Source: Escherichia phage JN02
DNA length: 64,000 bases
Sequence record: MT782071.1
Reading direction: 5' to 3' (one strand)
Under the pieces are notes generated by a model. It searched no databases. It saw nothing but the letters and a program-made list of their open reading frames with translations, and had not been told where the DNA came from. This document shows, piece after piece, positions 663-14,577 of this stretch; position 1 is the stretch's first letter; each line of letters starts with the position of its first letter. The position numbers and the translations under genes were made by a program.

Positions 663-1076
663 TTAGTAAATTGATTTACCATAGTATTTGTACCAAGTAG
701 GACGTTGAGCAATTTTTTCATCTAAGCGAGCTTGACTTATCGCAATGGATGCTTCGGACGGGACATAATTATTACGAAATTCTGCAGGGATGTCGGAAAT
801 ATCCTGGACAGTCGTGTCCTTGATTTTGAAACCACGTTTCACGCATTCAGCGATTAGCTCGATTTGACGTAAACGTAAAAATTCGAGTTTGTCGTAAAAG
901 AATGTTACGTGACCTGTGCCTAAGATAAATGTTGGAGAGATTTTAAAATCCTTTACACGTTTACCGTTTTGAACATGTTTACGGACTGCACCAAATACGC
1001 GTGGTAATTCACGATACTCAGCCATAAGATGTTGGTCGGTCAGTTCAGAAACAAGTGTTAAATTGATACGAGTCAT
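663..1076 (-). CDS. denV: Endonuclease V (pyrimidine dimer DNA glycosylase/AP lyase)
   Basis: Translation from [12 protein letters not shown] is near-identical to T4 DenV as I recall it; 137 aa from that Met (ORF track begins 4 codons earlier at 1088). Confidence 0.93.
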
Positions 1077-1103
1077 AATTTCCTCCAAGTAGTTGATGAA
1101 TGT

Positions 1104-1133
1104 ATAGTATCAAAGTCCTTGGAGGAAGTAAAC
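1104..1133 (-). promoter_or_regulatory. Early promoter cassette (-35 GTTTAC, -10 TACTAT) with inverted repeat around the -10
   Basis: Minus-strand GTTTAC-N18-TACTAT; cctccaag / cttggagg inverted repeat flanks the -10. Confidence 0.5.
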
Positions 1134-1134
1134 A

Positions 1135-1416
1135 CTATTTTTCTGAAGCTCCTGAAATATATTTTTCAAGACGTTGTTTCATCAGCGAGCCGTTCTTAGC
1201 GATTTCTTCCGGTTTATCGCACATACGTAACAAGGCTTCAAGCTTAGCGATATCGCTGGTACGTTCAAATTTGCGAGTATCTATCTTACTAGCAAGTTCA
1301 GAAATACGTGCTAATAGACTTTCGGCTTCAACCAAAGCTGCACCTAGCTTAGTTGCAAATGTGTCAGTAGCTTCGTTAAGAATAGATTCTGATAAAAATT
1401 CACTATATGTTTTCAT
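1135..1416 (-). CDS. Internal protein candidate, 93 aa from [10 protein letters not shown]
   Basis: ORF track 1135..1431; internal Met gives a capsid-targeting-like N-terminus; overlaps start of e by 4 nt. Confidence 0.55.
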
Positions 1417-1901
1417 ATATACGCTTTCCAAGTTCCTGTTTTAAATGTTGAGATTACGCGTTTCGCGCGATTAGGTGTCTGACGATACCATTTAGATTGG
1501 GCTAGATTTACTGCCGCTTCATCCCAACGTTTCTGTTGAAGCATACGAAGAGAATTAGTAAAACCAGCGACGCCTGCTACACCCATTTGGAAGACCATAT
1601 TGACCAATGCACATCGACGAACAGCATCTAAAGAATCATATACCGGTTTAAGTTTAGCATTACCTAAGATTCCGCGAACGGCTTTATCAACGTCTTCATT
1701 AAATAGCTTTTCAGCCTCATCAAGGGTAATTGTACCGTTGCATTTACGGCCGATCATTCTGTCAAGTTCAGCTTTAGCTACGGCTAAAGACGGGTTCTTT
1801 GTTACTAAATGGCCTATGCCAATCGTCCAAAAGCCTTCAGTGTCTTTGTATAAAGTCAGTCTAAGACCTTCGTCATTACGAAGCATTTCAAATATATTCA
1901 T
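1413..1901 (-). CDS. e: Lysozyme (endolysin), T4 e-type, 162 aa
   Basis: [32 protein letters not shown]... closely matches T4 lysozyme; start taken at MNIF, 4 codons into the track ORF. Confidence 0.95.
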
Positions 1902-1935
1902 AATACCTCCCACGTTTATAGGAGGTATTTATTAC

Positions 1936-2394
1936 TTATAGGATGGTAGTGAGCACCTTATATAATGATTTGCCCATTACATATTCCCATTGAGAAGGTT
2001 TAATTAAAGCGAATGCATCAAATTCAGGAATCTGTCGTCCGTCTGGGAATGTATGATAGGAATTACAAACACTGTTTCTGAATTGCTCGTGCTCTACAGG
2101 GATGGTATATAGGAACAGATGAATATTCTTATTGTCTGAGTAATGATGTTCACCTAGGTCTTTCAGGAAGGCAGGGTCGTATTGTGTAAACCCAGTTTCT
2201 TCTTCGCATTCACGAATAGCGGCTTCGATAGGAGATTCACCAGGCTCGACACGACCTTTAGGAATATCCCACCGATGAGCTAAAGAACCTTTAGGACGAG
2301 AACCAGTTACACGCCCCATGAATAATTCTTTATCTTCGGTAAGGAAAATAATACCGGCTGATAGTTCTTTCACTTTATTTTTCTTACTCATCAT
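1936..2394 (-). CDS. nudE: Nudix hydrolase
   Basis: Nudix box GRVEPGESPIEAAIRECEEETG; about 152 aa; directly downstream of e as in T4 (e.1). Confidence 0.85.
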   Translation of the reverse strand: MMSKKNKVKELSAGIIFLTEDKELFMGRVTGSRPKGSLAHRWDIPKGRVEPGESPIEAAIRECEEETGFTQYDPAFLKDLGEHHYSDNKNIHLFLYTIPVEHEQFRNSVCNSYHTFPDGRQIPEFDAFALIKPSQWEYVMGKSLYKVLTTIL

Positions 2395-2635
2395 CTCGGT
2401 CCCATGATTTGGCCATTAATTCGGACATAAATTCTTCAATGCGCGTTTCTTTAGATGGACTTTCACTATTAGAGACCGCAAGTTTGTAATCTGCAATAGG
2501 ACAGAACATATCAAGGTCCATATTAAGGTCGTCTTTGATTTTTTCTTCTGACACATCTTTATCGTATGTGTACAGATAGCTATCACATGATTCTGATTTA
2601 ATGTAAATTGCTATACTCATCTCAAATTCCTGCAT
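2384..2635 (-). CDS. Hypothetical protein (83 aa; may start at internal Met at 2620)
   Basis: ORF in track; AGGA Shine-Dalgarno 7 nt upstream of the internal ATG. Confidence 0.45.
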   Translation of the reverse strand: MQEFEMSIAIYIKSESCDSYLYTYDKDVSEEKIKDDLNMDLDMFCPIADYKLAVSNSESPSKETRIEEFMSELMAKSWDRDDE

Positions 2636-3108
2636 TCGGTAATAAAACGTTCAACTTCATTATTCTTGGCTTTTATCTTGTCTTTACGTTCCTGTAAACT
2701 ACTTTTAACAAGATTAATAATGATGCCTATAGTACCTCCACCAATAATACCACCAACAACACTTATGATACTAGATGCTAATAAGATAGCAATAATATCA
2801 ACAAAACCGAAAGAACTCACCTTAGTACTGAAAAACCATACCGACGGTACAAATATAATCCATCCTGTTATCCATTGGCACTTATTGAAAAACTTTTCAA
2901 GCTCAGCTTGAGTTGTTCGTATTACTTCATCGATAGGTTGATATCCATTAATGTATCTGTTCACGATAATACCTGCTGGCTGGTCGATTTTAAATTCTTG
3001 ACAAATATGTTTCACTAAGTAGGATGGACATCCTGTCCAATCTACTGAATAGTATGAAATACCTTCATTGCCATCGTCTATATTAGACCAATATGTTTTG
3101 TTAATCAT
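2617..3108 (-). CDS. Hypothetical membrane protein, 163 aa, C-terminus ...ERFITECRNLR
   Basis: ORF in track; hydrophobic helices (FVPSVWFF..., IISVVGGIIGGGTIGIIINL); C-terminal F-I-x-E-C-R motif. Confidence 0.55.
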   Translation of the reverse strand: MINKTYWSNIDDGNEGISYYSVDWTGCPSYLVKHICQEFKIDQPAGIIVNRYINGYQPIDEVIRTTQAELEKFFNKCQWITGWIIFVPSVWFFSTKVSSFGFVDIIAILLASSIISVVGGIIGGGTIGIIINLVKSSLQERKDKIKAKNNEVERFITECRNLR

Positions 3109-3794
3109 TACCAGCCTTCCATAGGGAATTCCAGATAAACTTGAGCATTGACACGAATTTCATTGGTAATCTTTTTAACTCGGTCTGTATTACGAGATAC
3201 ACGTCCGAACCAACGCCATCCATTACTAATTGCACGAGAACCAGTGTGCCATGTTTGCCAATCAAACTGAAGAAGAGTACGGTCCGGAGCTTCCCATTTC
3301 TCTAGTTCACCTTTTTCAATTTTTTCTAGGACTTCTTTGTGCCACTGGCGATAGATAAGTTCGCCATCAGGAATCTGACTGAACTCTGCAGTTCCTGTTG
3401 CAAAATGAGTAGGACACACATCAGCGTTAACAAGACCAAGAATATGTTCAGACAAATAGCGAGGATTGTCATAATCAGGTTGTCCTGCAGTAATAAAGTG
3501 TTGACCAACTGGAATATCAGGGCGTGGTACGTCATCATGGTGATATCCAGGAATAGCAGGATACCAACCAGGCATCAGCATGTGGACTCGTGAATCAAAT
3601 ACAACCTGGTCAGTGTTCCAATCATCTGGCAAGTTCATGATGAAGCTACGAGTAATTGGGCCGCCATTATTAAAAGCAAAATTCAAATCGCAGTTAAAGA
3701 ACATAGGCTCGTTTTTAATCCGATCGTTTTTAATCGCATGAGCAAAACCACCTACTGCACGAGCTTGACTATTAAACACTTTAGAACTATTCAT
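3108..3794 (-). CDS. Hypothetical protein, 228 aa
   Basis: ORF in track, tightly packed in the minus-strand operon. Confidence 0.6.
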   Translation of the reverse strand: MNSSKVFNSQARAVGGFAHAIKNDRIKNEPMFFNCDLNFAFNNGGPITRSFIMNLPDDWNTDQVVFDSRVHMLMPGWYPAIPGYHHDDVPRPDIPVGQHFITAGQPDYDNPRYLSEHILGLVNADVCPTHFATGTAEFSQIPDGELIYRQWHKEVLEKIEKGELEKWEAPDRTLLQFDWQTWHTGSRAISNGWRWFGRVSRNTDRVKKITNEIRVNAQVYLEFPMEGW

Positions 3795-3795
3795 A

Positions 3796-4101
3796 TTATT
3801 TTCCTCGACATTCTTTAATGAAATTTTCTAGATTGGTAGATTCAATAGCTTTTTTACGAGCTTCCGCGTGTTCTTCTTCGGACAATTTACGTTTATAATT
3901 GACCCAGACATTATGGTCGAAACCAGTCGTGGCATATAATAACAATGCTCCAACGAATAGCAAAAACGGCGATAAGAATACAAAACCAGGAACACCATCC
4001 ATATCGTAAGCCTTTTGTAATACTGCAACAGAAAGGGTTGCGTAAAAAGGCGATGCAAGTATTGTTAAAAGACCGATTCGATTGGTTTCTGTTAATTTCA
4101 T
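3796..4101 (-). CDS. Hypothetical small membrane protein, 101 aa, C-terminus ...ENFIKECRGK
   Basis: ORF in track; two hydrophobic segments; shared C-terminal motif. Confidence 0.55.
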   Translation of the reverse strand: MKLTETNRIGLLTILASPFYATLSVAVLQKAYDMDGVPGFVFLSPFLLFVGALLLYATTGFDHNVWVNYKRKLSEEEHAEARKKAIESTNLENFIKECRGK

Positions 4102-4126
4102 AATATTCTCCTCAAGTTGATAGGAC

Positions 4127-4156
4127 TACTATAACATGGCCCTATCAGTTTGTACA
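4127..4156 (-). promoter_or_regulatory. Early promoter cassette (-35 GTACAA, -10 TATAGT) with flanking inverted repeat
   Basis: ttgataggactactataacat element between ORFs. Confidence 0.5.
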
Positions 4157-4157
4157 C

Positions 4158-4358
4158 TTATTTTGACATTTCTTCGATGTCACGACGATACCCATCACGA
4201 ACTTCACGAAGAGCTTCAAGGCCACACATAGGCTCGATACCAGTAATGTGAACTTGATTAATCTGATACTCTACATCTTCTAACTGAGCGAAAACATAAC
4301 GACGTTCTGCTGCACAACCAGGTTTAGCTTTACCGAAACGTTTATTCAAAGTAGTCAT
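4158..4358 (-). CDS. Hypothetical protein, about 66 aa
   Basis: ORF track 4158..4376; internal Met (MTTLNKRF) has GGAG Shine-Dalgarno 8 nt upstream. Confidence 0.45.
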   Translation of the reverse strand: MTTLNKRFGKAKPGCAAERRYVFAQLEDVEYQINQVHITGIEPMCGLEALREVRDGYRRDIEEMSK

Positions 4359-4396
4359 TTTTATATCTCCATTCACTCATTTGTTTTGATAGGTCT

Positions 4397-4426
4397 ATAG
4401 TATCAACAACTACAGACCTTGTAAAC
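4397..4426 (-). promoter_or_regulatory. Early promoter cassette (-35 GTTTAC, -10 TACTAT)
   Basis: Minus-strand GTTTAC-N18-TACTAT; ggtctatag / ctacagacc inverted repeat. Confidence 0.5.
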
Positions 4427-4438
4427 TGTTTTGTGAAA

Positions 4439-5395
4439 TTATTTGAAAGGTTTTACCATATGGAAATTTTGTTTGAAACGTTTTACGTAATCGTTGTGTC
4501 CTAAGCTTTGGTACATACTTACAACTTTGCTGTAGTTTTCCCAGGCGTATTCACGGAACCAACCGGAGGTGATGCTTGTGCAGACTTTTTCTAATGCCAT
4601 CATGAAACTGGCTTCAGGGTTAATTTCAAAGTTATTAGGAATCTGAGAACGTTCTAACGCTAGTACACATGATTCTTCGTATACACCGGCCAATTTGACC
4701 ATTTCTGGTAATGATTCGAACTTCTCGCGTGAGGTCATGACTTCAGAACCATCTTTCATATAAAATGTATACGCTGGACGGTCTGTTAGCGCAATGGCTT
4801 CATGAATAGTATCATGGTCATATGTATAGATGTCATCTTTAAAGAACGCACTTTTAGAAGTGTCAAGAACTGGGTGAGCATAGTTCAAGGTTTCTTTCTG
4901 GCGTTTCAGCATAATTTCAGTAAGTTCATCGTTCAGTGTAACACCTTTACCACGAAGATACTGAATATGGTTCATAGTCTTTAAAAAGAATGGATTATTT
5001 TTCTTGAAACGATGAGACATCTTAATTGCAAGACATATCTCAGGAGTTGCCCAATAAAACCCGTTCAAACGGTCTTTAGTCAAATTTTTCTTGGCGTATT
5101 TTAAAAGGTCATAAGAAGACGTGAAATCTTCAGGAGTGAGTTCACCTACTAATTCACGGACATTAGTGATTGCCGGAACAATATATGCTTCAAAATGAGT
5201 TTCGCGTCCATTATGGAAGCATTTGAAAACTTGGACATCAGGGTTATCTTGATGAACATATACACCCATCATTTGATTTTTGAATGCATTCCAAGAACCT
5301 TGGTCTGCAATAAAGTCCCAGTCACTATTTTTGATAGCGTTAGAATCAATAAGACCGTGATAGTGAAGTGCACGAGAACCAATAACTAACATCAT
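4439..5395 (-). CDS. Hypothetical protein, 318 aa, with possible nucleotidyltransferase-like N-terminal motif
   Basis: ORF in track; N-terminal VIGSRALHYHG...SDWDF resembles the G[SG]...DxD signature of Pol-beta-like nucleotidyltransferases (weak, by eye only). Confidence 0.55.
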   Translation of the reverse strand: MMLVIGSRALHYHGLIDSNAIKNSDWDFIADQGSWNAFKNQMMGVYVHQDNPDVQVFKCFHNGRETHFEAYIVPAITNVRELVGELTPEDFTSSYDLLKYAKKNLTKDRLNGFYWATPEICLAIKMSHRFKKNNPFFLKTMNHIQYLRGKGVTLNDELTEIMLKRQKETLNYAHPVLDTSKSAFFKDDIYTYDHDTIHEAIALTDRPAYTFYMKDGSEVMTSREKFESLPEMVKLAGVYEESCVLALERSQIPNNFEINPEASFMMALEKVCTSITSGWFREYAWENYSKVVSMYQSLGHNDYVKRFKQNFHMVKPFK

Positions 5396-5423
5396 AATAT
5401 TTTCCTCGGATTAATTCATTAAC

Positions 5424-5663
5424 TTAAATTTCACGACATGCGATATTATATTCATCCCAGAGGTCATCATGTGAAGCCTCTACCAATGGAACGATTGTAC
5501 CATTTATGTCTTCATTATAAGGGCAAATTGTGCAGTGTGCATCTTCAAATCGGATGCCTTTGTGTTCAGATTTTTTATAACGCATATCGAATATCTTTGC
5601 AAACTTTTCACGAGTAACGGTTTTAGCAACCACTTCGGTTCCAATACTTTCGTAATAAATCAT
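5424..5663 (-). CDS. Hypothetical protein, 79 aa
   Basis: ORF in track; GGAG Shine-Dalgarno; early promoter immediately upstream. Confidence 0.5.
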   Translation of the reverse strand: MIYYESIGTEVVAKTVTREKFAKIFDMRYKKSEHKGIRFEDAHCTICPYNEDINGTIVPLVEASHDDLWDEYNIACREI

Positions 5664-5691
5664 TGTGGACTCCGTTTAATTTGATAGGACT

Positions 5692-5721
5692 ACTATAACA
5701 TAGTCCTATCTTGTTGTAAAC
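5692..5721 (-). promoter_or_regulatory. Early promoter cassette (-35 GTTTAC, -10 TATAGT) with perfect 9-bp inverted repeat around the -10
   Basis: gataggact...tatagt...agtcctatc. Confidence 0.55.
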
Positions 5722-5725
5722 TGTT

Positions 5726-5923
5726 TTAGCAAGAATAACTAGATGATACCCAGCCTTGAACAGTGATACTATTGTTGGATAATGATATCGCGTTCTGGAG
5801 ATTCAGACCTGCGTTATCTTCAATCCATAATGTAACTTCTTCGCGTTCTTCTGTTGCAATTTGGAACAGGTTTTCCAGGGCAGCTACTGCCGTACGTACA
5901 GCACAATCTAATTCACGAGACAT
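5726..5923 (-). CDS. Hypothetical small protein, 65 aa, paralog family member (C-terminus GWVSSSYSC)
   Basis: ORF in track; shares C-terminal motif with the two upstream ORFs. Confidence 0.5.
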   Translation of the reverse strand: MSRELDCAVRTAVAALENLFQIATEEREEVTLWIEDNAGLNLQNAISLSNNSITVQGWVSSSYSC

Positions 5924-5932
5924 ATGATTTCC

Positions 5933-6205
5933 TTAGCAAGTGTGAGAAGATGCAATCCAACCACCAGTTTCGAGGCTCAGGTTGTAGTCGTATTGGTAAA
6001 CGTCGGCCCATTCAGCATAGCCGTTTTTTGTACAACGTTCAAGATCGGCTTTAAGCTGTCCGGGTGAATGATAAGTTCCACCCATACCATAAGCTGGATA
6101 CAAGTCGAATGTTGTGTTTTGTTTATCAGCGATTTCTTTGGCAGCCTCAATAGCTGCATAGATTTTTGCTACAGCTTCAGCCAGTTCGGTTTGTTCTTTA
6201 GACAT
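5933..6205 (-). CDS. Hypothetical small protein, 90 aa, paralog (C-terminus GGWIASSHTC)
   Basis: ORF in track. Confidence 0.55.
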   Translation of the reverse strand: MSKEQTELAEAVAKIYAAIEAAKEIADKQNTTFDLYPAYGMGGTYHSPGQLKADLERCTKNGYAEWADVYQYDYNLSLETGGWIASSHTC

Positions 6206-6214
6206 AATGATTCC

Positions 6215-6520
6215 TTAGCACAAAGCAGAAGACGAAACCCAAGCACCTTCAGTAATAACGTAACCATTACCTTCACGCTTAACATCGCCACCATTATTTT
6301 CAATTTCATTTTTCATCCACTGGGATACGATTTCACCCTTAGGATAATAAGTACGACCGCTACCATAATCACCTACAGAAAATGATACGGCATATTGGTC
6401 TGCGATCTTTGTTGCTTCTTCTTCGATACGTTCAGCTTGATTCAGAAGTTTATAAATTGCATCTGAAGCGGATTTGGCATCGTTAAACTCTGGTACTTTA
6501 ATTTCAATAATCTTACTCAT
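6215..6520 (-). CDS. Hypothetical small protein, 101 aa, paralog (C-terminus GAWVSSSALC)
   Basis: ORF in track; start overlaps upstream stop (ATGA). Confidence 0.55.
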   Translation of the reverse strand: MSKIIEIKVPEFNDAKSASDAIYKLLNQAERIEEEATKIADQYAVSFSVGDYGSGRTYYPKGEIVSQWMKNEIENNGGDVKREGNGYVITEGAWVSSSALC

Positions 6521-6876
6521 TTTCTACATTCCTTAATAAAGTTTTCGATTGTTTCATTTTCACGTTTAGCTAGAAGTTCATTATAACTAACCATTTGAGA
6601 AGCGTAAACCTTTTTATTTTTCTTGTTATGGTTTATAAAATCGTAGTAAAAATAGACTACAGTACAAAATGATGCGATGGATGCAAAGGCTTGGGTATAC
6701 CGTAAGTCCTGCCATTGGTCTGTGAATCCATCGGTGTTCCCTATAAATCCTAACACAACGCCGTCAATAAGAAATCCAACTAATCCAAAGGCAAATCCCA
6801 TGCCAATACTCATAATAAAAATTAGAATGTTCTCACCAAGAGAAGGCCGTACGGTTAAGAGTTGAGGCTTTTGCAT
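6517..6876 (-). CDS. Hypothetical membrane protein, 119 aa, C-terminus ...ENFIKECRK
   Basis: ORF in track; hydrophobic segments; shared C-terminal motif. Confidence 0.55.
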   Translation of the reverse strand: MQKPQLLTVRPSLGENILIFIMSIGMGFAFGLVGFLIDGVVLGFIGNTDGFTDQWQDLRYTQAFASIASFCTVVYFYYDFINHNKKNKKVYASQMVSYNELLAKRENETIENFIKECRK

Positions 6877-7250
6877 CTTATTTCCTTAACGAATTCCATA
6901 GCTTCTTCGTATTCATACTTTTTAACAGCTTCATTATACTGAGCTTGGGCTTTTGCGCACTGAACTTTCCATTCTCTTAATCGGGCTCTGTGATGACGTC
7001 CTTGGTACCAATATCCTACCCAATTAATAGGCATTAATAAAAACGGTACAATAAGTGGTGCGACGAACATTAATGAAAATGTTGCGTCAGACGATATAAC
7101 TTCACTAGAATCTAAAACAGCTCCTATAATCATAAAGATTAAAAATGCTAAAGCTAAAATAGGGCCAAATAGTACTTCGTTTGGGATTAATTTACGCTTG
7201 TATTCATATGCCCAGGGCTTACTTGGCATGTACAGGGTTGGCTTTGACAT
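6855..7250 (-). CDS. Hypothetical membrane protein, about 131 aa (start uncertain), C-terminus ...EFVKEIRCKSLNS
   Basis: ORF track 6855..7280; start probably an internal Met to avoid long overlap with the upstream gene. Confidence 0.45.
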   Translation of the reverse strand: MSKPTLYMPSKPWAYEYKRKLIPNEVLFGPILALAFLIFMIIGAVLDSSEVISSDATFSLMFVAPLIVPFLLMPINWVGYWYQGRHHRARLREWKVQCAKAQAQYNEAVKKYEYEEAMEFVKEIRCKSLNS

Positions 7251-7815
7251 ATTCTCTACATTCCATAATAAATTGCTCAAGGATTAAATTGTTAGTGAAA
7301 TTAGGACTAACAACCATAGTTTCATAAAGCGCATCAATAGCACTTAAAGCATCAACTCTTTTAAGCAAAGGCTTGCCTTCATACATAGTTTCAGAATCGA
7401 TGATTAACGTAAAGTAATATTTTTTATTATCGACTAGAACTTCTGTATCGATATAAAACATATTAGACCTCAGAAGCTTATCTCTAAAACCATAATAATC
7501 TTCAGAGCGTTCGCTGATATATTCCAATTCAGTGTTTAAACAACAAACAGACCACGTAGGAGCAACGAAATCAGTGAATCTAATATCATGGTCTGCAACT
7601 AGTTTAGCAATAGCTCCGATATCATGAATCATAATACCTGGGGCTAATAAAGATTTTCGGTTATTTGCATATTCAGTTGTCTCATAAGAAGACGACCAGT
7701 ACCATTTACGTCCAGTTGCAACATATCGTAATGAATCAACTAAAGACGTAGGTGGATTTACCTTATTTCGGAACTCTTCGAACATTGAGTCAATATCATT
7801 ATTTTGGTTTCGCAT
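7219..7815 (-). CDS. Hypothetical protein, about 198 aa, containing ...EQFIMECREY... near the C-terminus
   Basis: ORF track 7219..7836; Met at 7815 has GGAG Shine-Dalgarno 6 nt upstream. Confidence 0.5.
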   Translation of the reverse strand: MRNQNNDIDSMFEEFRNKVNPPTSLVDSLRYVATGRKWYWSSSYETTEYANNRKSLLAPGIMIHDIGAIAKLVADHDIRFTDFVAPTWSVCCLNTELEYISERSEDYYGFRDKLLRSNMFYIDTEVLVDNKKYYFTLIIDSETMYEGKPLLKRVDALSAIDALYETMVVSPNFTNNLILEQFIMECREYVKANPVHAK

Positions 7816-7832
7816 GTTAACTCCTTTATTAT

Positions 7833-7856
7833 CCAAAAGGAGGACCGGAGTCCTCC
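7833..7856 (-). terminator. Rho-independent terminator (stem ggaggac / gtcctcc, tetraloop, T-tract on minus strand)
   Basis: Hairpin followed by TTTTGG on minus strand, downstream of ORF 7865..8473. Confidence 0.5.
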
Positions 7857-7864
7857 GTATTATT

Positions 7865-8473
7865 TTATTTCAAAGAGTTAATATATTCTTGTACATCAGC
7901 AGAAGTGGTTTCGACACCAGCTGGAGTGCCATTGAACGTTTCAACACGAGTCAGAGTGTCTTCGATATCAACCTTAGTCAGTGCAGCGATTTCAATTACA
8001 TCATCAGCCGTAGAGATACCAAGGGCATTGGCTGCTCGAGTTTCACGAATGTATTCGAGTTTGATTGCCAGGTTCTGACGAGCATCATCAAGTTCAACCA
8101 CCTTACGAGCAATTTCAATTCGCATAGCAGCATACCCATCAGCTTTTGTATTAAGTTGTTCGGCAGTTCGACGATACAGAAGACCAAGCTTAGCATGCAT
8201 GGTAACATCTTGTCCTTCAGCCATGAGCTTACGAATTTCACGTTCCTTAGAAGCGGCTTGTTTGTTCTTTTCATTAACAAGTTCGCGAATACGTTTTTCT
8301 TCATTAATAGATTTAACAGAAGCCGTTTTTAGTTCTTTGATCTGGGTAATCAACTTATCTGCAGCTGCGTTATACTGTTCTTCGACAGTCAGATTTTTAG
8401 CCATAGCAGTACCCAGTTTAGTGCGGATGAATTCAACAAGTTTCTTCAGTGTGTTCATATTATTACCTTTCAA
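7865..8473 (-). CDS. Hypothetical coiled-coil protein, about 200 aa
   Basis: ORF in track; charged, heptad-like composition. Confidence 0.55.
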
Positions 8474-8499
8474 TTGGTGGTTTATTATCCAATGAGAGC

Positions 8500-8528
8500 A
8501 TTATACTCTACTCTCAAGAGTTTGTACA
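8500..8528 (-). promoter_or_regulatory. Early promoter (-35 TGTACA, -10 TATAAT)
   Basis: Minus-strand TGTACA-N17-TATAAT upstream of ORF 7865..8473. Confidence 0.45.
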
Positions 8529-8529
8529 C

Positions 8530-8778
8530 TTATTTGTACGAATTAATAATCTCTTCCATTTTATCCAGAACATGGATATCGATTATACGAGGAAGTGCCG
8601 AAAGATTAGAACCGTCGAAAGATTTAAGGTCTTCCAAAATAATATTTTCAATGGCCTTTAAAGCTTCCGCAGATTCTGATGCAGAATTAAATTCAGGAAT
8701 TTCTCCAAAAAGACGTAAGAATGAACCAAAGTATTCTACGGCGATTTCTTTAGCTTGTTCGATATCAGACTTAAACAT
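8530..8778 (-). CDS. Hypothetical protein, about 82 aa
   Basis: ORF track 8530..8811; Met at 8778 has GAGGA Shine-Dalgarno. Confidence 0.5.
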   Translation of the reverse strand: MFKSDIEQAKEIAVEYFGSFLRLFGEIPEFNSASESAEALKAIENIILEDLKSFDGSNLSALPRIIDIHVLDKMEEIINSYK

Positions 8779-8806
8779 TTTGTTTTCCTCATTTGTTGGT
8801 GGAGTA

Positions 8807-8835
8807 ATCATATCACCATCCTTGGCGTTTGTACA
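8807..8835 (-). promoter_or_regulatory. Early promoter (-35 TGTACA, -10 TATGAT)
   Basis: Shares the caccatccttgg...ttgtaca element with the cassette at 9305..9334. Confidence 0.4.
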
Positions 8836-9063
8836 TTATTTTTTAATCAAGTTGACATAAAATTCTGCATCTTCAGGGTGCATGCCTTCGCAGTATTCTT
8901 CAACCATGAACTTCTTAACGGCTTCATAAGGACCACTCAGATTAAGCTCAGTTGTCCAGAACTTGGAATCTTGGACTGAATCGATACGAACTTCAGGGTG
9001 ACGGTTGCGAATAACTTCTTCGGTGTATTCATAATCAACGACATCAATACTAACTTTAGCCAT
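8836..9063 (-). CDS. Hypothetical protein, 75 aa
   Basis: ORF in track; AGAGGA Shine-Dalgarno. Confidence 0.5.
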   Translation of the reverse strand: MAKVSIDVVDYEYTEEVIRNRHPEVRIDSVQDSKFWTTELNLSGPYEAVKKFMVEEYCEGMHPEDAEFYVNLIKK

Positions 9064-9091
9064 TTTGTTTTCCTCTTGATTTGATAGGACT

Positions 9092-9121
9092 ACTATAACA
9101 TAAACTTACTTAGATGTAAAT
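9092..9121 (-). promoter_or_regulatory. Early promoter cassette (-10 TATAGT)
   Basis: ttgataggactactataacat element. Confidence 0.45.
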
Positions 9122-9274
9122 TATTTCAACGTCACCTTTAGCTGCTTTATAACCTTCAGCCCAAGATACAACAGAGTTTTTATCTGAGGATTCAAATTCA
9201 GGCATTGGACTTTCACCAATATTCACACAGTATGTTTCTTCATTTTCATCGAACCAAATAATTAAAGTAGTCAT
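9110..9274 (-). CDS. Hypothetical small protein, about 54 aa (below ORF-track cutoff)
   Basis: Hand-translated ORF MTTLIIWFDENEETYCVNIGESPMPEF...; strong AGGAG Shine-Dalgarno; own promoter upstream. Confidence 0.4.
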   Translation of the reverse strand: MTTLIIWFDENEETYCVNIGESPMPEFESSDKNSVVSWAEGYKAAKGDVEIIYI

Positions 9275-9304
9275 TTTGTTTACTCCTCTGTAGTTGATAA
9301 GTCT

Positions 9305-9334
9305 ATAGTATCACCATCCTTGGTGCTTGTACAT
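9305..9334 (-). promoter_or_regulatory. Early promoter cassette (-35 TGTACA, -10 TACTAT)
   Basis: Near-identical to the element at 45570..45599. Confidence 0.45.
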
Positions 9335-9341
9335 CATTATT

Positions 9342-9647
9342 TTAATTTTTCCAACTTAACAACTTGTAGTGTCCTTCATTCATACGTGGTTTATCCCAAG
9401 AAATACTAATATATGATTCACTGTCAATAGAAGTCGCCGGGTTTTTCTCTACCGTAAGACCTTCACTTTCCAGCCATTCAATAGTATTTGCGCATAAATC
9501 TGAAGAACACCTAATCGGAAACCGGCAAGATTTTTCACCTTTAGCTGCAGTGTTATACATCTTTTCTAAAATACGCTTTTGCACGTTTTTAAAAATAGTT
9601 TCAGCAGATTCTTCAGATTTTTTATTCAGTTCAGTGTAAAGACTCAT
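9342..9647 (-). CDS. Hypothetical protein, 101 aa
   Basis: ORF in track. Confidence 0.55.
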   Translation of the reverse strand: MSLYTELNKKSEESAETIFKNVQKRILEKMYNTAAKGEKSCRFPIRCSSDLCANTIEWLESEGLTVEKNPATSIDSESYISISWDKPRMNEGHYKLLSWKN

Positions 9648-9675
9648 AATATTCTCCCCATGTTTTGATAGGTCT

Positions 9676-9704
9676 ATAGTAACACATCTAGGGAAGAAGT
9701 AAAC
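9676..9704 (-). promoter_or_regulatory. Early promoter (-35 GTTTAC, -10 TACTAT)
   Basis: Minus-strand GTTTAC-N17-TACTAT. Confidence 0.5.
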
Positions 9705-9735
9705 AACTTTTTCAGTAAGTTATAGACCCCCTAAA

Positions 9736-9751
9736 GGGACCCGAAGGTCCC
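9736..9751 (-). terminator. Terminator-like hairpin (gggacc-cgaa-ggtccc)
   Basis: Perfect 6-bp stem with tetraloop just downstream of ORF 9758..10384; weak T-tract. Confidence 0.35.
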
Positions 9752-9757
9752 CATTCT

Positions 9758-10384
9758 TTACTTACGAGTTTTTGCATACTGAGCAGCGTCAGCAGCCAAA
9801 CGACCTGCCTGACGAAGTTTTTCTTTAATCGCATCGTGAAGTGGTTGAGTATACTTCAAACCTTCGATAGTCAAATAAAGACGATAAAGGTCTGGGGTAT
9901 CAAGGTTGTTGATATGTTGGCCATTGCGAAGAATATTGAATTCACGAACGAGTGAAGATGTATCGGATTCAATATCGCGAACAAGCGAAGATAGTTGTTT
10001 ATATTTTTTTTCCAGGCTAGAAGTATCAAACTTAAGAGCAGGAGCTTTAGGAGTTGCTTTTACTTCAGGCTTAGGCTCAGGTTTTGCTATTGCTTTAGGG
10101 GCCGCAGGTTTAGGAATGGTAGGAGCAGGTTTTACTTTAGGCGAACCAGATTTAGCAGGAACACCACCACTAACAATATCTTTGAATGCTTTAGAAGCTC
10201 TGTAATATTCTTTTTGGCTCGAAGTGTCGATACCGTACATGGCTTGAACGTTTTTGAAAAACTCTGTACTAGTTTTTGTACCAGAAATAGCATCATAAGC
10301 AGCTCGCCATTTCTCTTTTGTCATACGTACACCGGCTTCGGTGATTACTTCCGTTTCGGCTAAAAATTCATTAAAAGTATACAT
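9758..10384 (-). CDS. Candidate capsid-targeted protein, 208 aa, N-terminus MYTFNEFLAE, with Pro/Ala/Lys-rich linker
   Basis: ORF in track; capsid-targeting-like N-terminus; low-complexity linker GSPKVKPAPTIPKPAAPKAIAKPEPKPEVKATPKAP between two domains. Confidence 0.6.
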   Translation of the reverse strand: MYTFNEFLAETEVITEAGVRMTKEKWRAAYDAISGTKTSTEFFKNVQAMYGIDTSSQKEYYRASKAFKDIVSGGVPAKSGSPKVKPAPTIPKPAAPKAIAKPEPKPEVKATPKAPALKFDTSSLEKKYKQLSSLVRDIESDTSSLVREFNILRNGQHINNLDTPDLYRLYLTIEGLKYTQPLHDAIKEKLRQAGRLAADAAQYAKTRK

Positions 10385-10428
10385 CGATGGTCCTTAGAAA
10401 GTAGGTTTATTGTTTACTATATTTATAC

Positions 10429-10458
10429 AAAAAAAAGCCCCAACCTTTCGGAAGGGGC
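10429..10458 (-). terminator. Rho-independent terminator (hairpin followed by T8 on minus strand)
   Basis: gcccc...ggggc stem with inner GAAA-type loop; plus-strand A8 at 10429-10436 is U8 on the minus transcript. Confidence 0.6.
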
Positions 10459-10507
10459 TTTATACCTTGTCGGGGTTTCCACCTACTAGGTAAGTGTTTG
10501 TACGAAA

Positions 10508-10600
10508 CGCCGGGATTTGAACCCGGTTATTAAGTAGTTGACGCTACTCAATATTTTTAAAAGGCCATATCTCGACCATATCCGAACGTTCCGTCAAAAA
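10508..10600 (-). ncRNA. tRNA-like structured RNA candidate (canonical T-arm and 7-bp acceptor stem, non-canonical body)
   Basis: Minus strand has CCGGG-TTCAAAT-CCCGG T-arm and acceptor pairing cggaacg / cgtttcg, but D and anticodon arms do not fold canonically; sits in a 300-bp ORF-free region. Confidence 0.3.
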
Positions 10601-10761
10601 CGCCACTCGGCTTACGGCAAAGATATTTCCTCGAATCGATAATTCGGTGCGCCGTTTCTGCTGTGATGTAAGGGGATATTAACAAAACATAAAGATTTAT
10701 TAAGACCAGTCCTTACTCAGGGAACATCAGTCCGACGACTTGCCGGTAGCGACCCGGCTTC

Positions 10762-11106
10762 TTATTTTGGCATATCATCAATTTGCTCTCGACGCCGACG
10801 CCATAGATTAATCGCTTCATAAACACATTCAGCATTTGGTATATGGCGACAATAGTACAGTGATTCACGTTTCTGGAACCGATGTTGCAATGGGATTTCG
10901 TTTAAAAGGTCTTTACGGTCAAAGTATTCAAAACTAGTTAACCCGGAACGGTTTTTAAGAAACTTCCAATGGCCGAATTCATTTTGGAAATAAACGTAAT
11001 CAGCGTGTTGATATAACGAATTAATCAACCGGTCGGAAATAACTGTATCCTGTTCGTTAAAATAAAACGTTAAATCATGAACTACTAGATAAATATTGCC
11101 TTTCAT
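10762..11106 (-). CDS. Hypothetical protein, 114 aa
   Basis: ORF track uses a TTG start at 11154 that would overlap tRNA-Arg; ATG at 11106 with GAGG Shine-Dalgarno is more plausible. Confidence 0.5.
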   Translation of the reverse strand: MKGNIYLVVHDLTFYFNEQDTVISDRLINSLYQHADYVYFQNEFGHWKFLKNRSGLTSFEYFDRKDLLNEIPLQHRFQKRESLYYCRHIPNAECVYEAINLWRRRREQIDDMPK

Positions 11107-11124
11107 ATTTTCCTCACTTAAAGT

Positions 11125-11201
<77 letters not shown>

Positions 11202-11207
11202 AATATA

Positions 11208-11281
11208 TGACCCAGACCAGATTCGAACTGGTAACCTTTCCCTTATGAGGGGACTGCTGCTAACCATTGAGCTACAGGGCC
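11208..11281 (-). tRNA. tRNA with CAT anticodon (Met, or lysidine-modified Ile2-type)
   Basis: T-arm accag-TTCGAAT-ctggt, anticodon loop CTCATAA, acceptor with one wobble and one mismatch, D-arm imperfect; 6 nt from tRNA-Arg (dimeric precursor arrangement). Confidence 0.6.
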
Positions 11282-11360
11282 TAAATAACTTTCTATTATG
11301 AAAGGCACTTTAGAGCACCTTTGGTAATAGAGGGTATGAATTAATAATAACACATAATTC

Positions 11361-11876
11361 TTAAAGCAAATCAATCATTTTAACAGTCGGCAAAACAATT
11401 TCTTCTTCAATATAAGCGAATTCAACACGTTCAACTACACGCAAGAAATCATAATCATAATATTCAGAAGCATGGCCAAGAATATCAATGAGACCTTCAG
11501 ATATCTTATTACCATTCACAAAGAATAAGTCAAATACGCGTTCTTCATCTTCTTCGGATTTATTACCAAGGTCGACTTCAATATCAAAGACCTTTTTAAT
11601 GAATTCTGGATAAAGCTGGTCTGAGAACAGTCCTTCAACCAAGTATTCATAGATTAAAAGCGAGCAATCGCTGAACAGTGTATTACCACAGTAACGTTCA
11701 GCTTTAGTGCTAGAATGACGACTCTTAAATTTCTTCAAGAGATATTTAAACTGTTGGAGCTCATGCTCTTCTACACCAAATAATGTTTTGGTTTTATAGT
11801 TGTCGCCGTCATTTTCCCAAGTAGTGACATCAATTACGTAGCCCTTAGGAATTGTACTGCCTAAACGAATATTCAT
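11361..11876 (-). CDS. Hypothetical protein, 171 aa
   Basis: ORF in track. Confidence 0.6.
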   Translation of the reverse strand: MNIRLGSTIPKGYVIDVTTWENDGDNYKTKTLFGVEEHELQQFKYLLKKFKSRHSSTKAERYCGNTLFSDCSLLIYEYLVEGLFSDQLYPEFIKKVFDIEVDLGNKSEEDEERVFDLFFVNGNKISEGLIDILGHASEYYDYDFLRVVERVEFAYIEEEIVLPTVKMIDLL

Positions 11877-11880
11877 TTAA

Positions 11881-12171
11881 TCACCATACCATATTAATGT
11901 AAGTATACTCAATACATTCAAGATTTAAAGGATTCTTGAAAATATCATATTCAAGAGGGCCTTTTTCTGTTTCAATAAAGAAATCAAAGTTAACTGTGTT
12001 AAATTTATCGTCTTCGCAGAGTAATTTAACCTGTGAAGACGAACGGTCGATGTAAACCTTTTCAACTTCAAAATATGTTAAAATGCCATAATCATCGACT
12101 AGTGCTTTAGCTGCACGTTGATCGCTTTCATATCCATTCTCGACAGATTTTACTTTAGCATAAAGAATCAT
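11881..12171 (-). CDS. Hypothetical protein, 96 aa
   Basis: ORF in track. Confidence 0.55.
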   Translation of the reverse strand: MILYAKVKSVENGYESDQRAAKALVDDYGILTYFEVEKVYIDRSSSQVKLLCEDDKFNTVNFDFFIETEKGPLEYDIFKNPLNLECIEYTYINMVW

Positions 12172-12530
12172 GAGTGTTCCACCACTTCAAAAGTATGTGC
12201 ACTTACAATCTGGTACCAGTCAAAATTTTCTTCAGCATTTTTGTAGATTTCACGAAGAGCTTCAACAGTTTTTCCTGTAGCAACAAGATCATCAATACCG
12301 CCAAGAGGATAACAGTCGTAACCAGCAAACAGAAGGAAATTAATAGTTTCTGTAGGTTCTGGATGCAGTGTACCATTGTCATCGACTACTTCAAAGAACA
12401 TATAACCAGGCGATTTAGATTTAATCCAAGCCCATGCTTGAGCCGCTGAATCAAATGGTTTGCGTATCAAACGACAATCAGGGTCTTTAGAAGGATTTGC
12501 TTCAAAATCCGCATATACGTGATATTTCAT
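12168..12530 (-). CDS. Hypothetical protein, about 120 aa
   Basis: ORF track 12168..12548; Met at 12530 (MKYHVYADF) has AAGGTGAG Shine-Dalgarno. Confidence 0.55.
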   Translation of the reverse strand: MKYHVYADFEANPSKDPDCRLIRKPFDSAAQAWAWIKSKSPGYMFFEVVDDNGTLHPEPTETINFLLFAGYDCYPLGGIDDLVATGKTVEALREIYKNAEENFDWYQIVSAHTFEVVEHS

Positions 12531-12531
12531 T

Positions 12532-12738
12532 TTACTCACCTTTTGCAATTTTATCCATAACGATAGCGATTAAGCCGATTAGAAATGCTACTACCAATGA
12601 GATAGAATTTTCTGTTGTTGTCAGTAGTCCACAAATGAATCCTACAAACATCGAAAAACTAAAAGCCATTGAAGCAATTACTACAGCAACATTACGAATC
12701 AGTTCAGCGCGTTTCATTTTATTTCTCCATTTACTCAT
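12532..12738 (-). CDS. Hypothetical small membrane protein, 68 aa
   Basis: ORF in track; two hydrophobic helices. Confidence 0.5.
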   Translation of the reverse strand: MSKWRNKMKRAELIRNVAVVIASMAFSFSMFVGFICGLLTTTENSISLVVAFLIGLIAIVMDKIAKGE

Positions 12739-12754
12739 TTGATTTGATAGGACT

Positions 12755-12784
12755 ACTATATCATAGTCCTATCAGCATGTAAAC
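12755..12784 (-). promoter_or_regulatory. Early promoter cassette (-35 GTTTAC, -10 TATAGT) with perfect inverted repeat
   Basis: gataggact...agtcctatc around the -10. Confidence 0.55.
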
Positions 12785-12787
12785 TAC

Positions 12788-13075
12788 TTACAGAAGAGTT
12801 TTTGCAATAATTTTAAGCTGAGCTACAGAAATATGCTTAGCTTTAAACAGTGCAGTCTCTTCAGCAGGAGAGATAACAATAGTAGCGCCATCTTTCTTAG
12901 CAGACCATCCATCCCCTAAGTAAACAGTACCTTTTACTTCTTCGCCGTCAACCAGACTAATCATTGGTTTACCCTCACGTCCTTTATTTGCTTTAATAAC
13001 TTCGGAAGTAAGGGTTGCTTCGGTCAGAGTAGAAACGTTAGCATCAGGTGATATAAATTCTTTATAGGTTTTCAT
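12788..13075 (-). CDS. Internal protein I-like capsid-targeted protein, 95 aa precursor
   Basis: N-terminus MKTYKEFI...; L-T-E at residues 17-19 would give a 76-aa mature protein; position next to 57B matches ipI in T4. Confidence 0.55.
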   Translation of the reverse strand: MKTYKEFISPDANVSTLTEATLTSEVIKANKGREGKPMISLVDGEEVKGTVYLGDGWSAKKDGATIVISPAEETALFKAKHISVAQLKIIAKTLL

Positions 13076-13109
13076 TTTATTTCCTTGAGGTCGTTTATTT
13101 GATAGGATG

Positions 13110-13139
13110 ATAGTAACACGCCATCATCCTTATGTAAAC
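13110..13139 (-). promoter_or_regulatory. Early promoter cassette (-35 GTTTAC, -10 TACTAT)
   Basis: aggatgat / atcatcct inverted repeat around the -10. Confidence 0.5.
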
Positions 13140-13152
13140 TGTTTTGTGAAAA

Positions 13153-13838
<686 letters not shown>

Positions 13839-13842
13839 TTTA

Positions 13843-14577
13843 TTACCTTAAGGTTGTTTCAATTTTAGAATAAAGCTCTTCTAAAGAGCCGTCGTTTGTA
13901 ATAACTAAATCGCCTTCTTCAATAGGCAACCCAGCTTCTGTAATATGTTTATCGGTGGATTCCGTACCAGAGCGAACCACATGAATAACTGTAGCACCCA
14001 TCGCTCTAGCGGTTTCCATTTCATGGACTTGGCGTGTATCGGTTACAACATAGTAATCGAAATCACTTCCAATATAATCCATATAATTTAATGCAAAAAG
14101 TTTAACCCAATACATACGGTCAAATAAATTAACGACAACATCCGTACCGAGGGCTTGCATAAGACGGCGGATTGACCATGTGTCGTTGATATTATTTATA
14201 GCTTCACGCAGGGCTTCATATGGTTTAATATCTAGATATGAATACCCACCTTCTAATGATGATAATACTTTAACATTATTAATTGGTAAATATTGGCTTT
14301 GTAAATAAATTAGCGCTTCTTCCATTAATTCAATAACATCCAACTTATTGATATTTAATGGTGTTTCACGGTCGTATCCAACACCTTCAAAGTATTCATA
14401 TTTCAACTCAGTGAATACATCAGGGTTTTCGGCATGTCTACGTCCCCAGGCTATTGCTAGAGCGTCTTTAATCGGATATGCCAATTGGTATTTTACGGAT
14501 TTAAAGTTTGAATTGATGTAATCAGCAGTGGTGTCTTTACCACTACGTTTGATGCCGCTTAAAAAGATTAGCTCCAT
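13843..14577 (-). CDS. 1: Deoxynucleoside monophosphate kinase (gp1)
   Basis: MELIFLSGIKRSGKDTTADYI... P-loop-like motif and 244 aa match T4 gp1. Confidence 0.85.
   Translation of the reverse strand: MELIFLSGIKRSGKDTTADYINSNFKSVKYQLAYPIKDALAIAWGRRHAENPDVFTELKYEYFEGVGYDRETPLNINKLDVIELMEEALIYLQSQYLPINNVKVLSSLEGGYSYLDIKPYEALREAINNINDTWSIRRLMQALGTDVVVNLFDRMYWVKLFALNYMDYIGSDFDYYVVTDTRQVHEMETARAMGATVIHVVRSGTESTDKHITEAGLPIEEGDLVITNDGSLEELYSKIETTLR

Follow-up and report, generated by a model that had tools for sequence, protein, structure and literature searches.

The nudE–57B interval of phage JN02

We analysed a 64,000-nucleotide stretch of Escherichia phage JN02 (sequence record MT782071.1), referred to throughout as the window, and examined the interval between nudE (1936–2394) and 57B (13153–13608), both on the minus strand, which bound 10,758 bp (2395–13152). 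Genes e and nudE flank the interval on one side, and 57B, 57A and gene 1 on the other. Reading frames taken from stop to stop, considered together with ribosome-binding sites and with how four close relatives are annotated, give 25 protein genes between nudE and 57B; all 25 are on the minus strand and all have plausible ribosome-binding sites. Together with two tRNAs and two small stable RNAs they make up the following map, shown with both boundary genes.

1936–2394, minus strand: nudE, Nudix hydrolase, left boundary; Pfam NUDIX, E 2e-16; 63% identical to T4, 99% to RB69
2384–2620, minus: g02, acidic, 78 amino acids (RB69ORF130c); phrog_2900, E 6e-37; absent from the T4 interval
2617–3108, minus: e.2, 163 amino acids, ERFITECR tail, C-terminal membrane-like segment (residues 105–123); phrog_2203 'membrane protein'; 26% identical to T4 e.2
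3108–3794, minus: g04, 228 amino acids, predicted Fe(II)/2-oxoglutarate dioxygenase (RB69ORF132c)
3796–4101, minus: g05, 101 amino acids (RB69ORF133c), membrane-like segments 9–27 and 37–55, ENFIKECR tail; phrog_9798
4158–4358, minus: g06, 66 amino acids, single-gene module; phrog_6200; in TU01, Mizar and 308Ecol, absent from RB69
4439–5395, minus: g07, 318 amino acids, predicted nucleotidyltransferase (RB69ORF134c; DUF7277 + DUF7275)
5424–5663, minus: g08, 79 amino acids (RB69ORF135c); phrog_3723
5726–6520, minus: g09 (5726–5923), g10 (5933–6205) and g11 (6215–6520), tandem small acidic proteins; g10 and g11 match phrog_899
6517–7815, minus: e.3 (6517–6876), e.4 (6855–7250) and e.5 (7219–7815), overlapping; 35%, 55% and 46% identical to T4; membrane-like segments in e.3 and e.4
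7865–8458, minus: e.6, 197 amino acids, most conserved gene of unassigned function; 88% identical to T4
8530–8778, minus: g16, 82 amino acids, single-gene module; phrog_13919
8836–9063, minus: frd.3-like gene, 75 amino acids; Pfam Phage_FRD3, E 1e-38; no copy in the T4 nudE–57B interval
9110–9274, minus: g18, 54 amino acids (RB69ORF145c); phrog_5461; absent in Mizar and 308Ecol
9342–9647, minus: g19, 101 amino acids (RB69ORF146c-like); phrog_18312
9758–10384, minus: g20, basic protein of 208 amino acids, Pro/Lys/Ala-rich linker; phrog_2280
10501–10639, minus: rnaC homologue (species 1 stable RNA); 136 of 139 alignment columns identical to T4 rnaC
10646–10763, minus: rnaD homologue (species 2 stable RNA); 101 of 121 alignment columns identical to T4 rnaD
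10762–11106, minus: g21, 114 amino acids (RB69ORF150c), between tRNA-Arg and rnaD; phrog_3355
11125–11201, minus: tRNA-Arg, anticodon UCU (TCT), reads AGA; ARAGORN; Rfam 71 bits
11208–11281, minus: tRNA with CAU (CAT) anticodon, called Met by ARAGORN; 97.5% identical to T4 tRNA-Ile across 81 nt
11361–11876, minus: g22, acidic, 171 amino acids (RB69ORF151c); phrog_2290
11881–12717, minus: trna.2 (11881–12171), trna.3 (12168–12530) and trna.4 (12532–12717); 87%, 41% and 84% identical to T4; two membrane-like segments in trna.4
12788–13075, minus: ipI, internal head protein I (nuclease inhibitor family); Pfam IPI_T4 (PF11634), E 1.4e-50; 88% identical to T4
13153–13608, minus: 57B = Acb1 (anti-CBASS phosphodiesterase family), right boundary; Pfam Acb1, E 6.7e-58; 84% identical to T4 57B

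All 25 proteins matched a PHROG family (E 2e-18 to 1e-150), only three matched Pfam (DUF7277 + DUF7275, Phage_FRD3 and IPI_T4), and PADLOC and NCBIfam scans of all 25 returned chance-level matches only. A preliminary description of the sequence had portrayed the region as about 11 kb with roughly 30 small genes, several of them membrane-anchored and almost none recognisable, and with only two tRNAs, compared with roughly 6 kb and eight tRNAs in T4. This picture holds: the intervals measure 10,758 and 6,461 bp, T4 has eight tRNAs, ARAGORN and Rfam give two in the window, the genes counted here number 29, and hydrophobic 19-residue segments with a Kyte-Doolittle mean of at least 1.6 are present in five of the 25 proteins (e.2, g05, e.3, e.4 and trna.4).

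Megablast of positions 1500–13700 against 50,697 phage records gave matches in 833. Query coverage was at least 80% in 114 records, mostly at 95–98% identity, and in 136 records the match reached at least 95% identity. Those close relatives that are annotated belong to Mosigvirus (e.g. JS09, HX01, TU01, mar005P1 and APCEc01), and by its sequence the window is that of an RB69/JS09-like T-even coliphage of this genus. RB69 (NC_004928, RB69p129–p157) has the same flanking genes, strand and two tRNAs in an interval of 11,005 bp, and carries 22 of the 25 window genes in the same order, at 89–100% amino-acid identity, with promoter cassettes at the same positions. It lacks g06, g16 and g20, the position of g20 being occupied by e.8, ORF148c and ORF149c; it has an additional internal-protein gene between ipI and 57B, and g11 is annotated as two open reading frames (ORFs). 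Genomes of the JS09 type, TU01 among them, differ from the window solely in having no g16.

Small minus-strand genes between conserved genes, three of 25 with a Pfam family, and a gene content that differs among Mosigvirus members (g06, g16, g18, g20, the genes adjacent to ipI and the number of tRNAs, which is 2, 3 or 10) are the features of a hyperplastic region. Very probably, then, the interval is the form that the hyperplastic accessory-gene region between nudE and 57B of T4-like phages takes in Mosigvirus (RB69/JS09 type). For RB69, Nolan et al. (2006, PMC1524935) described two tRNAs, novel ORFs clustered between blocks of conserved genes, and early promoters preceding those ORFs. The region is real, but its organisation is the usual one for RB69-like phages and was already known, the layout, the two tRNAs and the promoter cassettes having been published between 2006 and 2014. 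The preliminary description had treated the same genes in the same order in a well-characterised T-even genome, with functions assigned, as evidence against its account; RB69 supplies the order for 22 of the 25 genes, but not the assigned functions. RB69-like phages are widely isolated, and among the matching records are several for isolates oriented towards therapy or biocontrol. What the present analysis adds is a clean gene map, the location of rnaC and rnaD, support for cassette-mediated exchange in Mosigvirus, and folds for the two largest genes of unassigned function.

Putative early-promoter cassettes and predicted transcription units

Intergenic DNA on the coding strand contains a repeated unit, GTTTACA-N-TGTTATAGTAGTCCTATCAAA, and the window has four exact copies of the 17-mer TATAGTAGTCCTATCAA, all within the interval, against 0.18 expected. 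A generic sigma-70 scan scarcely exceeded background and was therefore replaced by a T4-early-type pattern, T[GT]TAC[AT]-N16-17-TA[TC][ATG][AG]T. It found 14 sites in 64 kb, all 14 on the minus strand, compared with 2.7 ± 1.5 in composition shuffles. Ten of these sites fall between nudE and 57B, and shortly after the end of each a gene starts. Applied to the equivalent intervals of RB69, TU01, Mizar and T4, the pattern gave 9, 9, 8 and 5 sites, respectively, at corresponding positions. The −35 box is TTTAC[AT] in six of the ten cassettes and TGTACA in four. Hairpins of 8–12 bp, with the −10 box in the loop, were found in six cassettes (z −2.2 to −4.9 relative to shuffles), and AGGA...TCCT is present in four of these six strong stems. 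The putative cassettes and the other candidate signals are as follows.

4128–4156, minus strand: early-promoter cassette upstream of g05; TGTACA-N17-TATAGT; palindrome; hairpin z −2.15
4397–4425, minus: early-promoter cassette upstream of g06; TTTACA-N17-TACTAT; 11-bp palindrome; z −3.94
5692–5720, minus: early-promoter cassette upstream of g08; TTTACA-N17-TATAGT; 11-bp palindrome; z −4.89
8500–8528, minus: early-promoter cassette upstream of e.6; TGTACA-N17-TATAAT; palindrome; z −2.29
8807–8835, minus: early-promoter cassette upstream of g16; TGTACA-N17-TATGAT
9092–9120, minus: early-promoter cassette upstream of frd.3; TTTACA-N17-TATAGT
9305–9333, minus: early-promoter cassette upstream of g18; TGTACA-N17-TACTAT
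9676–9703, minus: early-promoter cassette upstream of g19; TTTACT-N16-TACTAT
12755–12783, minus: early-promoter cassette upstream of trna.4; TTTACA-N17-TATAGT; 12-bp palindrome; z −4.39
13110–13138, minus: early-promoter cassette upstream of ipI; TTTACA-N17-TACTAT; 10-bp palindrome; z −3.15
7835–7856, minus: terminator-like hairpin after e.6; GGAGGACTCCGGTCCTCC + TTTT
9733–9752, minus: terminator-like hairpin after g20; GGGGACCTTCGGGTCCC + TTT
10429–10461, minus: strong terminator-like hairpin ending the tRNA/small-RNA unit; AAAGCCCC...GGGGC + T8; the stretch also aligns with T4
11344–11370, minus: MotA-box middle-promoter-like site, 63 nt upstream of the tRNAs; TTTGCTTTA-N12-TATTAT
10420–10427, minus: T4 late-promoter-type box, 36 nt upstream of g20; TATAAATA; the only one on this strand in 1000–14000

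If these signals operate as their motifs suggest, the three terminator-like hairpins would divide the region, and ten sigma-70-type early cassettes, one middle-type site and one late-type box would precede genes. The longest predicted unit would run from trna.4 through rnaC and comprise five protein genes, two tRNAs and two small RNAs. Further predicted units are e.6, followed by its hairpin; the six genes from e.5 to g09, none of which has its own cassette; g08 with g07; and g05 through nudE. Six units would consist of one gene each (ipI, g19, g18, frd.3, g16 and g06), the multigene runs comprising 2 to 6 protein genes. The unit of g20 is possibly late, in which case its product could be a late rather than an early protein and perhaps part of the virion. 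The preliminary description had envisaged short units, each with its own early promoter cassette. Repeated cassettes are indeed present, but with ten of them for 25 genes the claim that each unit has its own was overstated.

Probable module exchange at the cassettes

Pairwise blastn of the window against five Mosigvirus loci (six genomes in all) placed the junctions of every indel, and one end of the g20 replacement, in or beside a cassette, with aligned blocks overlapping by 7–75 bp. The g16 module, an extra segment at 8536–8826 that TU01, RB69, Mizar and 308Ecol do not have, is bordered by ~15 bp of overlapping homology that includes the −35 boxes TGTACAAAC; the e.6 cassette (8500–8528) forms the left repeat. 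Two cassettes bound the g06 module (4158–4419), which is absent in RB69, and the cassette at 4128–4156 is the right-hand breakpoint relative to that phage. Longer repeats border two genes that the window lacks: ~55 bp of repeated homology including the ipI cassette flanks the extra internal-protein gene of RB69, and ~75 bp of duplicated homology including the trna.4 cassette flanks an extra gene between trna.4 and ipI in Mizar and 308Ecol. The RB69 replacement of g20 starts beside the g19 cassette, at breakpoint 9661, and extends as far as the rnaC terminator. Reassortment is seen among the cassette types as well, the TGTACAAACGCCAAGGATGGTG unit lying upstream of g16 in the window and upstream of frd.3 in Mizar.

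Exchange mediated by early promoter plus stem-loop elements (PeSLs) has been described for T4-type phages (Arbiol et al. 2010, PMC2839356; PMC4122927). Breakpoints in or beside cassettes are the published signature of PeSL shuffling and so support the modular shuffling proposed in the preliminary description: homologous recombination between repeated PeSL cassettes would insert, delete or swap single-gene modules.

Several observations weigh against this account of the region and its cassettes. The T4-early-type pattern was derived from the very sites counted in the window, for which reason it was applied to the other genomes as an independent check. The general sigma-70 scan was weakly enriched (53 sites against 41 ± 6.6). 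Four of the ten cassettes have no significant hairpin, their folding being indistinguishable from that of shuffles, the six genes from g09 to e.5 lack a dedicated cassette, and the far end of the g20 replacement in RB69 falls at a terminator, not a promoter. Promoters, terminators and expression timing are read from motifs only, and recombination at cassettes from the positions of breakpoints.

The size difference from T4

In T4 (NC_000866), nudE ends at 67490 and 57B starts at 73952, and the DNA between them holds eight tRNAs, rnaC, rnaD, segB and 11 other protein genes. The two phages share flanks and orientation, nine protein genes (e.2, weakly, e.3–e.6, trna.2–4 and ipI), rnaC, rnaD, tRNA-Arg and tRNA-Ile, and the same type of early-promoter cassette. 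T4 lacks 16 of the 25 window genes, including those for the predicted dioxygenase and nucleotidyltransferase, and has segB, e.7, e.8 and eight tRNAs. The window interval exceeds that of T4 by 4,297 bp, distributed as follows.

2395–6516: nudE to e.3 (block A), +3,656 bp relative to T4
8459–10431: e.6 to rnaC, +1,049 bp
10768–11880: tRNA block, −341 bp
All remaining segments: about −67 bp

The region had been called expanded. It is longer than its T4 counterpart, but the difference may equally be a contraction in the T4 lineage. Because g04 and g07 are widespread, loss from that lineage could account for it as easily as gain in the window. A serious alternative, to which we would give slightly less than an even chance, is therefore that the 4.1-kb nudE–e.3 block is ancestral to the wider T4-like group and that the T4 (Tequatrovirus) lineage lost it. 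Block A contributes 3,656 of the 4,297 extra base pairs. We found g04 in 472 phage records, including JS10, VR7 and VR20, with Enterobacter, Klebsiella and Aeromonas phages at 75–90% identity, and g07 has 2,219 homologues in T4-like and larger phages; both genes are represented in JS10, VR7 and VR20, as well as in phages of Klebsiella, Enterobacter, Serratia, Yersinia and Aeromonas. One contig from an Aeromonas phage has g11-like, g07-like, g04-like (82% identical) and e.6-like genes on one strand. Against this history, horizontal spread of the block by cassette shuffling would yield the same distribution, and the high identity of g04 across hosts, compared with 45–50% for its neighbours, could itself mean recent transfer.

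Small proteins, internal protein I and anti-defence

Five neighbouring proteins, e.2, g05, e.3, e.4 and e.5, end in a C-terminal tail of the type F-[IV]-x-E-C-R, and four of the five have membrane-like segments. The tail occurs nowhere else in the six reading frames of the 64-kb window and is also carried by T4 e.3, e.4 and e.5. It overlaps the ribosome-binding site of the next gene, and we considered whether the motif (FIKECR) is a mere by-product of that site; this explanation was rejected, as the codons that supply the Shine-Dalgarno bases differ from junction to junction, so that the tail looks like a protein-level feature. The tandem proteins g09, g10 and g11 share a different C-terminal end, W-[VI]-[AS]-S-S-x-x-C. 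In sequence comparisons g10 and g11 (E 4e-6) are clearly paralogues, and the tail of g09 also matches g10 (E 4e-4). The RB69 equivalent of g11 was probably split into ORFs 138c/139c by a frameshift or sequencing error.

Residues 20–95 of the ipI product match the solved IPI* structure (PDB 2jub, E 6e-42). The sequence ...STLTE/ATLT, with a putative L-x-E-type site at residue 19/20 at which an N-terminal targeting peptide would be removed, coincides with the start point of the mature T4 chain. By homology, IPI would be packaged in the head, injected with the DNA and inhibit a type IV restriction nuclease, as in T4, GmrSD being the target ascribed to the IPI family. Two small genes just outside the interval, at 396–656 and 1135–1416 on the minus strand, match the internal head protein families phrog_2667 and phrog_3499, from which it appears that the denV–e neighbourhood also carries variable packaged proteins.

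Sequence homology assigns functions to IPI, the two tRNAs and rnaC/rnaD only; the region otherwise includes about 16 small proteins without assigned function, and sequence searches of PDB with e.5, e.6, g20 and g22 found no meaningful relative. Host-takeover and anti-defence functions had been expected here. This is borne out by homology for IPI, with Acb1 lying just outside the interval; for the other genes it is an expectation only. A stronger form of the idea is that the region is a dedicated anti-defence island, most of whose small proteins inhibit specific bacterial immune systems. Its basis is the presence of ipI (Pfam IPI_T4, PDB 2jub) with Acb1 directly adjoining, and the placement, behind early-type cassettes, of genes that vary between close relatives. 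Published work on related phages is also suggestive: a pull-down with the defence protein DRT1 enriched just two T4 proteins, one of them Trna.2, which that study did not characterise further (PMC13275509), and the tRNA cluster of phage T6 counters tRNA-cleaving Septu (PMC13096335). Nonetheless, apart from ipI no gene matches a characterised anti-defence family, PADLOC and NCBIfam having returned nothing; two products are predicted enzymes without a known defence link; and the genes shared with T4 (e.3–e.6 and trna.2–4) are conserved rather than fast-turning. The membrane-like segments of five products fit superinfection exclusion or lysis control at least as well as anti-defence. We consider such an island rather unlikely; that genes other than ipI act against host defences is a plausible proposal. 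What interest remains attaches to the predicted g04 and g07 enzymes and the five tail-motif proteins, which are sensible first targets for host-takeover or anti-defence screening, rather than in the region as such.

Predicted enzymes g04 and g07

Alignments and AlphaFold2 models were built for g04 and g07. The g04 model has a double-stranded beta-helix fold with an H-x-D...H iron triad and a 2-oxoglutarate-binding arginine, and the protein is predicted to be an Fe(II)/2-oxoglutarate dioxygenase. It had no Pfam match at E ≤ 0.05, 2OG-FeII_Oxy and PhyH included, and a PDB profile search returned no dioxygenase. The g07 model shows the fold of a nucleotidyltransferase, together with the G-[GS]...D-x-[DE] motif and one further acidic residue, and the protein is predicted to be a nucleotidyltransferase of the MenT/ANT fold. 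Its Pfam matches are DUF7277 and DUF7275 only, and a profile search against PDB sequences gave no match. A search of a viral fold library with the g07 model returned only uncharacterised DUF7275 proteins; the family occurs in phages and in giant eukaryotic viruses, where the DUF7275 proteins of Sylvanvirus and Satyrvirus have the same predicted fold.

The g04 homologue on the Aeromonas phage contig (locus L007, 7028–7714) is 82% identical to g04, and the g07 and e.6 homologues there are 45–50% identical to theirs; the high identity of g04 reflects either unusually strong constraint or recent transfer. A 227-amino-acid ORF near the g07 homologue of a Klebsiella phage was considered, by its size, as a g04 counterpart and rejected, there being no tblastn match at E ≤ 0.01.

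Both genes lie on one strand, a few small genes apart, in the window and in the Aeromonas T4-like phage contig. It is conceivable, if doubtful, that together they form an unrecognised enzymatic module that modifies host or phage RNA (e.g. tRNA 3′ ends) or a nucleotide signal; such a module would be a new host-takeover or counter-defence mechanism. A link to the arabinosyl-5-hydroxycytosine DNA modification of RB69 was dropped because the pathway genes (RB69p003, p028, p045–055 and p159; PMC13326640) lie elsewhere in that genome. Literature searches on DUF7275, DUF7277, RB69ORF132c and RB69ORF134c found no papers, and one for phage MenT-like enzymes found nothing relevant.

tRNAs, small stable RNAs and the reality of the small genes

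The tRNA with the CAU anticodon is, from its alignment, an orthologue of T4 tRNA-Ile and most likely a lysidine-modified AUA reader, so that the two tRNAs would serve the rare codons AGA and AUA; the CAU tRNA of RB69 was likewise read as a lysidine-modified tRNA-Ile by Nolan et al. (PMC1524935). Downstream of the tRNAs come rnaD, then rnaC, then the strong terminator-like hairpin at 10461–10429. In T4, tRNA-Arg adjoins rnaD; in the window, g21 lies in between. The two small RNA homologues, not noticed in the preliminary description, occupy an apparent 377-bp gap (10385–10761). Rfam at a permissive threshold reported the two tRNAs only and no family for the rnaC/rnaD homologues, which were therefore found through alignment to T4. 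They are missing from the Mosigvirus annotations that we examined. The tRNA slot itself is variable in Mosigvirus, with two tRNAs in the window and RB69, ten in RPN187 (locus L010, 5140–5967), and three in Mizar together with a NUMOD3/DUF559 homing-endonuclease-like gene (locus L001, 10809–11762).

Some reading frames in this part of the interval are doubtful. Tiny ORFs at 10557–10685 and 10713–10868 lie across the rnaC/rnaD homologues and are probably spurious; equivalents are annotated in TU01, where small ORFs are called over both RNAs, and phrog_24262 matches one tiny ORF overlying them, calls that probably also arise from the RNA genes. These frames are the evidence for a more general doubt, that many of the small ORFs are not genes and that chance reading frames swell the total of about 30. 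The ribosome-binding sites and PHROG matches found for all 25 proteins, and the 89–100% identity of nearly all of them to counterparts in independent genomes, make this very improbable.

Least credible of all is the idea that the window holds a recently acquired, strain-specific island unusual among T-even phages: although g16 is rare, being found at >95% identity in seven Escherichia phage records only and missing from RB69, TU01, Mizar and 308Ecol, its module measures just 291 bp and is also present in ECCR664 and RPN187, and the remaining region is 95–98% identical to many published genomes. As far as these comparisons go, the g16 module is the only uncommon one in the region; at ~50% identity the gene is also found in Klebsiella and Enterobacter T4-like phages. 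The ECCR664 record (134 kb, labelled complete, 18 annotated features) has many apparent frameshifts in the region, where several genes match in two pieces, and is probably a low-quality assembly.

Relation to known systems

The minimal nucleotidyltransferases of the MenT/AbiEii/ANT type have no sequence-level match to g07, which differs from them in its longer, highly conserved C-terminal helical domain (DUF7275). Among the neighbouring genes, none was identified as an antitoxin-like partner of g07: g08 and g06 encode small proteins without an antitoxin family match. On these grounds the predicted g07 enzyme appears to be related in fold to MenT/AbiEii rather than a member of that family.

The published consensus of T4/PST-type PeSLs consists of a promoter, TTTACW-N17-TAYWAT, and a stem, AGNA-loop-TCNT (Comeau et al. 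2014, PMC4122927). The window elements, known here from sequence alone, depart from it in four of ten −35 boxes, which read TGTACA and not TTTACW, and in having a significant hairpin in only six of the ten, with the stem flanking the −10 box. They resemble PeSLs in combining a repeated intergenic early-type promoter with, in those six, a stem-loop, in being concentrated in the hyperplastic region beside ORFans, and in lying at indel junctions; the AGGA...TCCT sequence of four of the six strong stems fits the published AGNA-loop-TCNT pattern.

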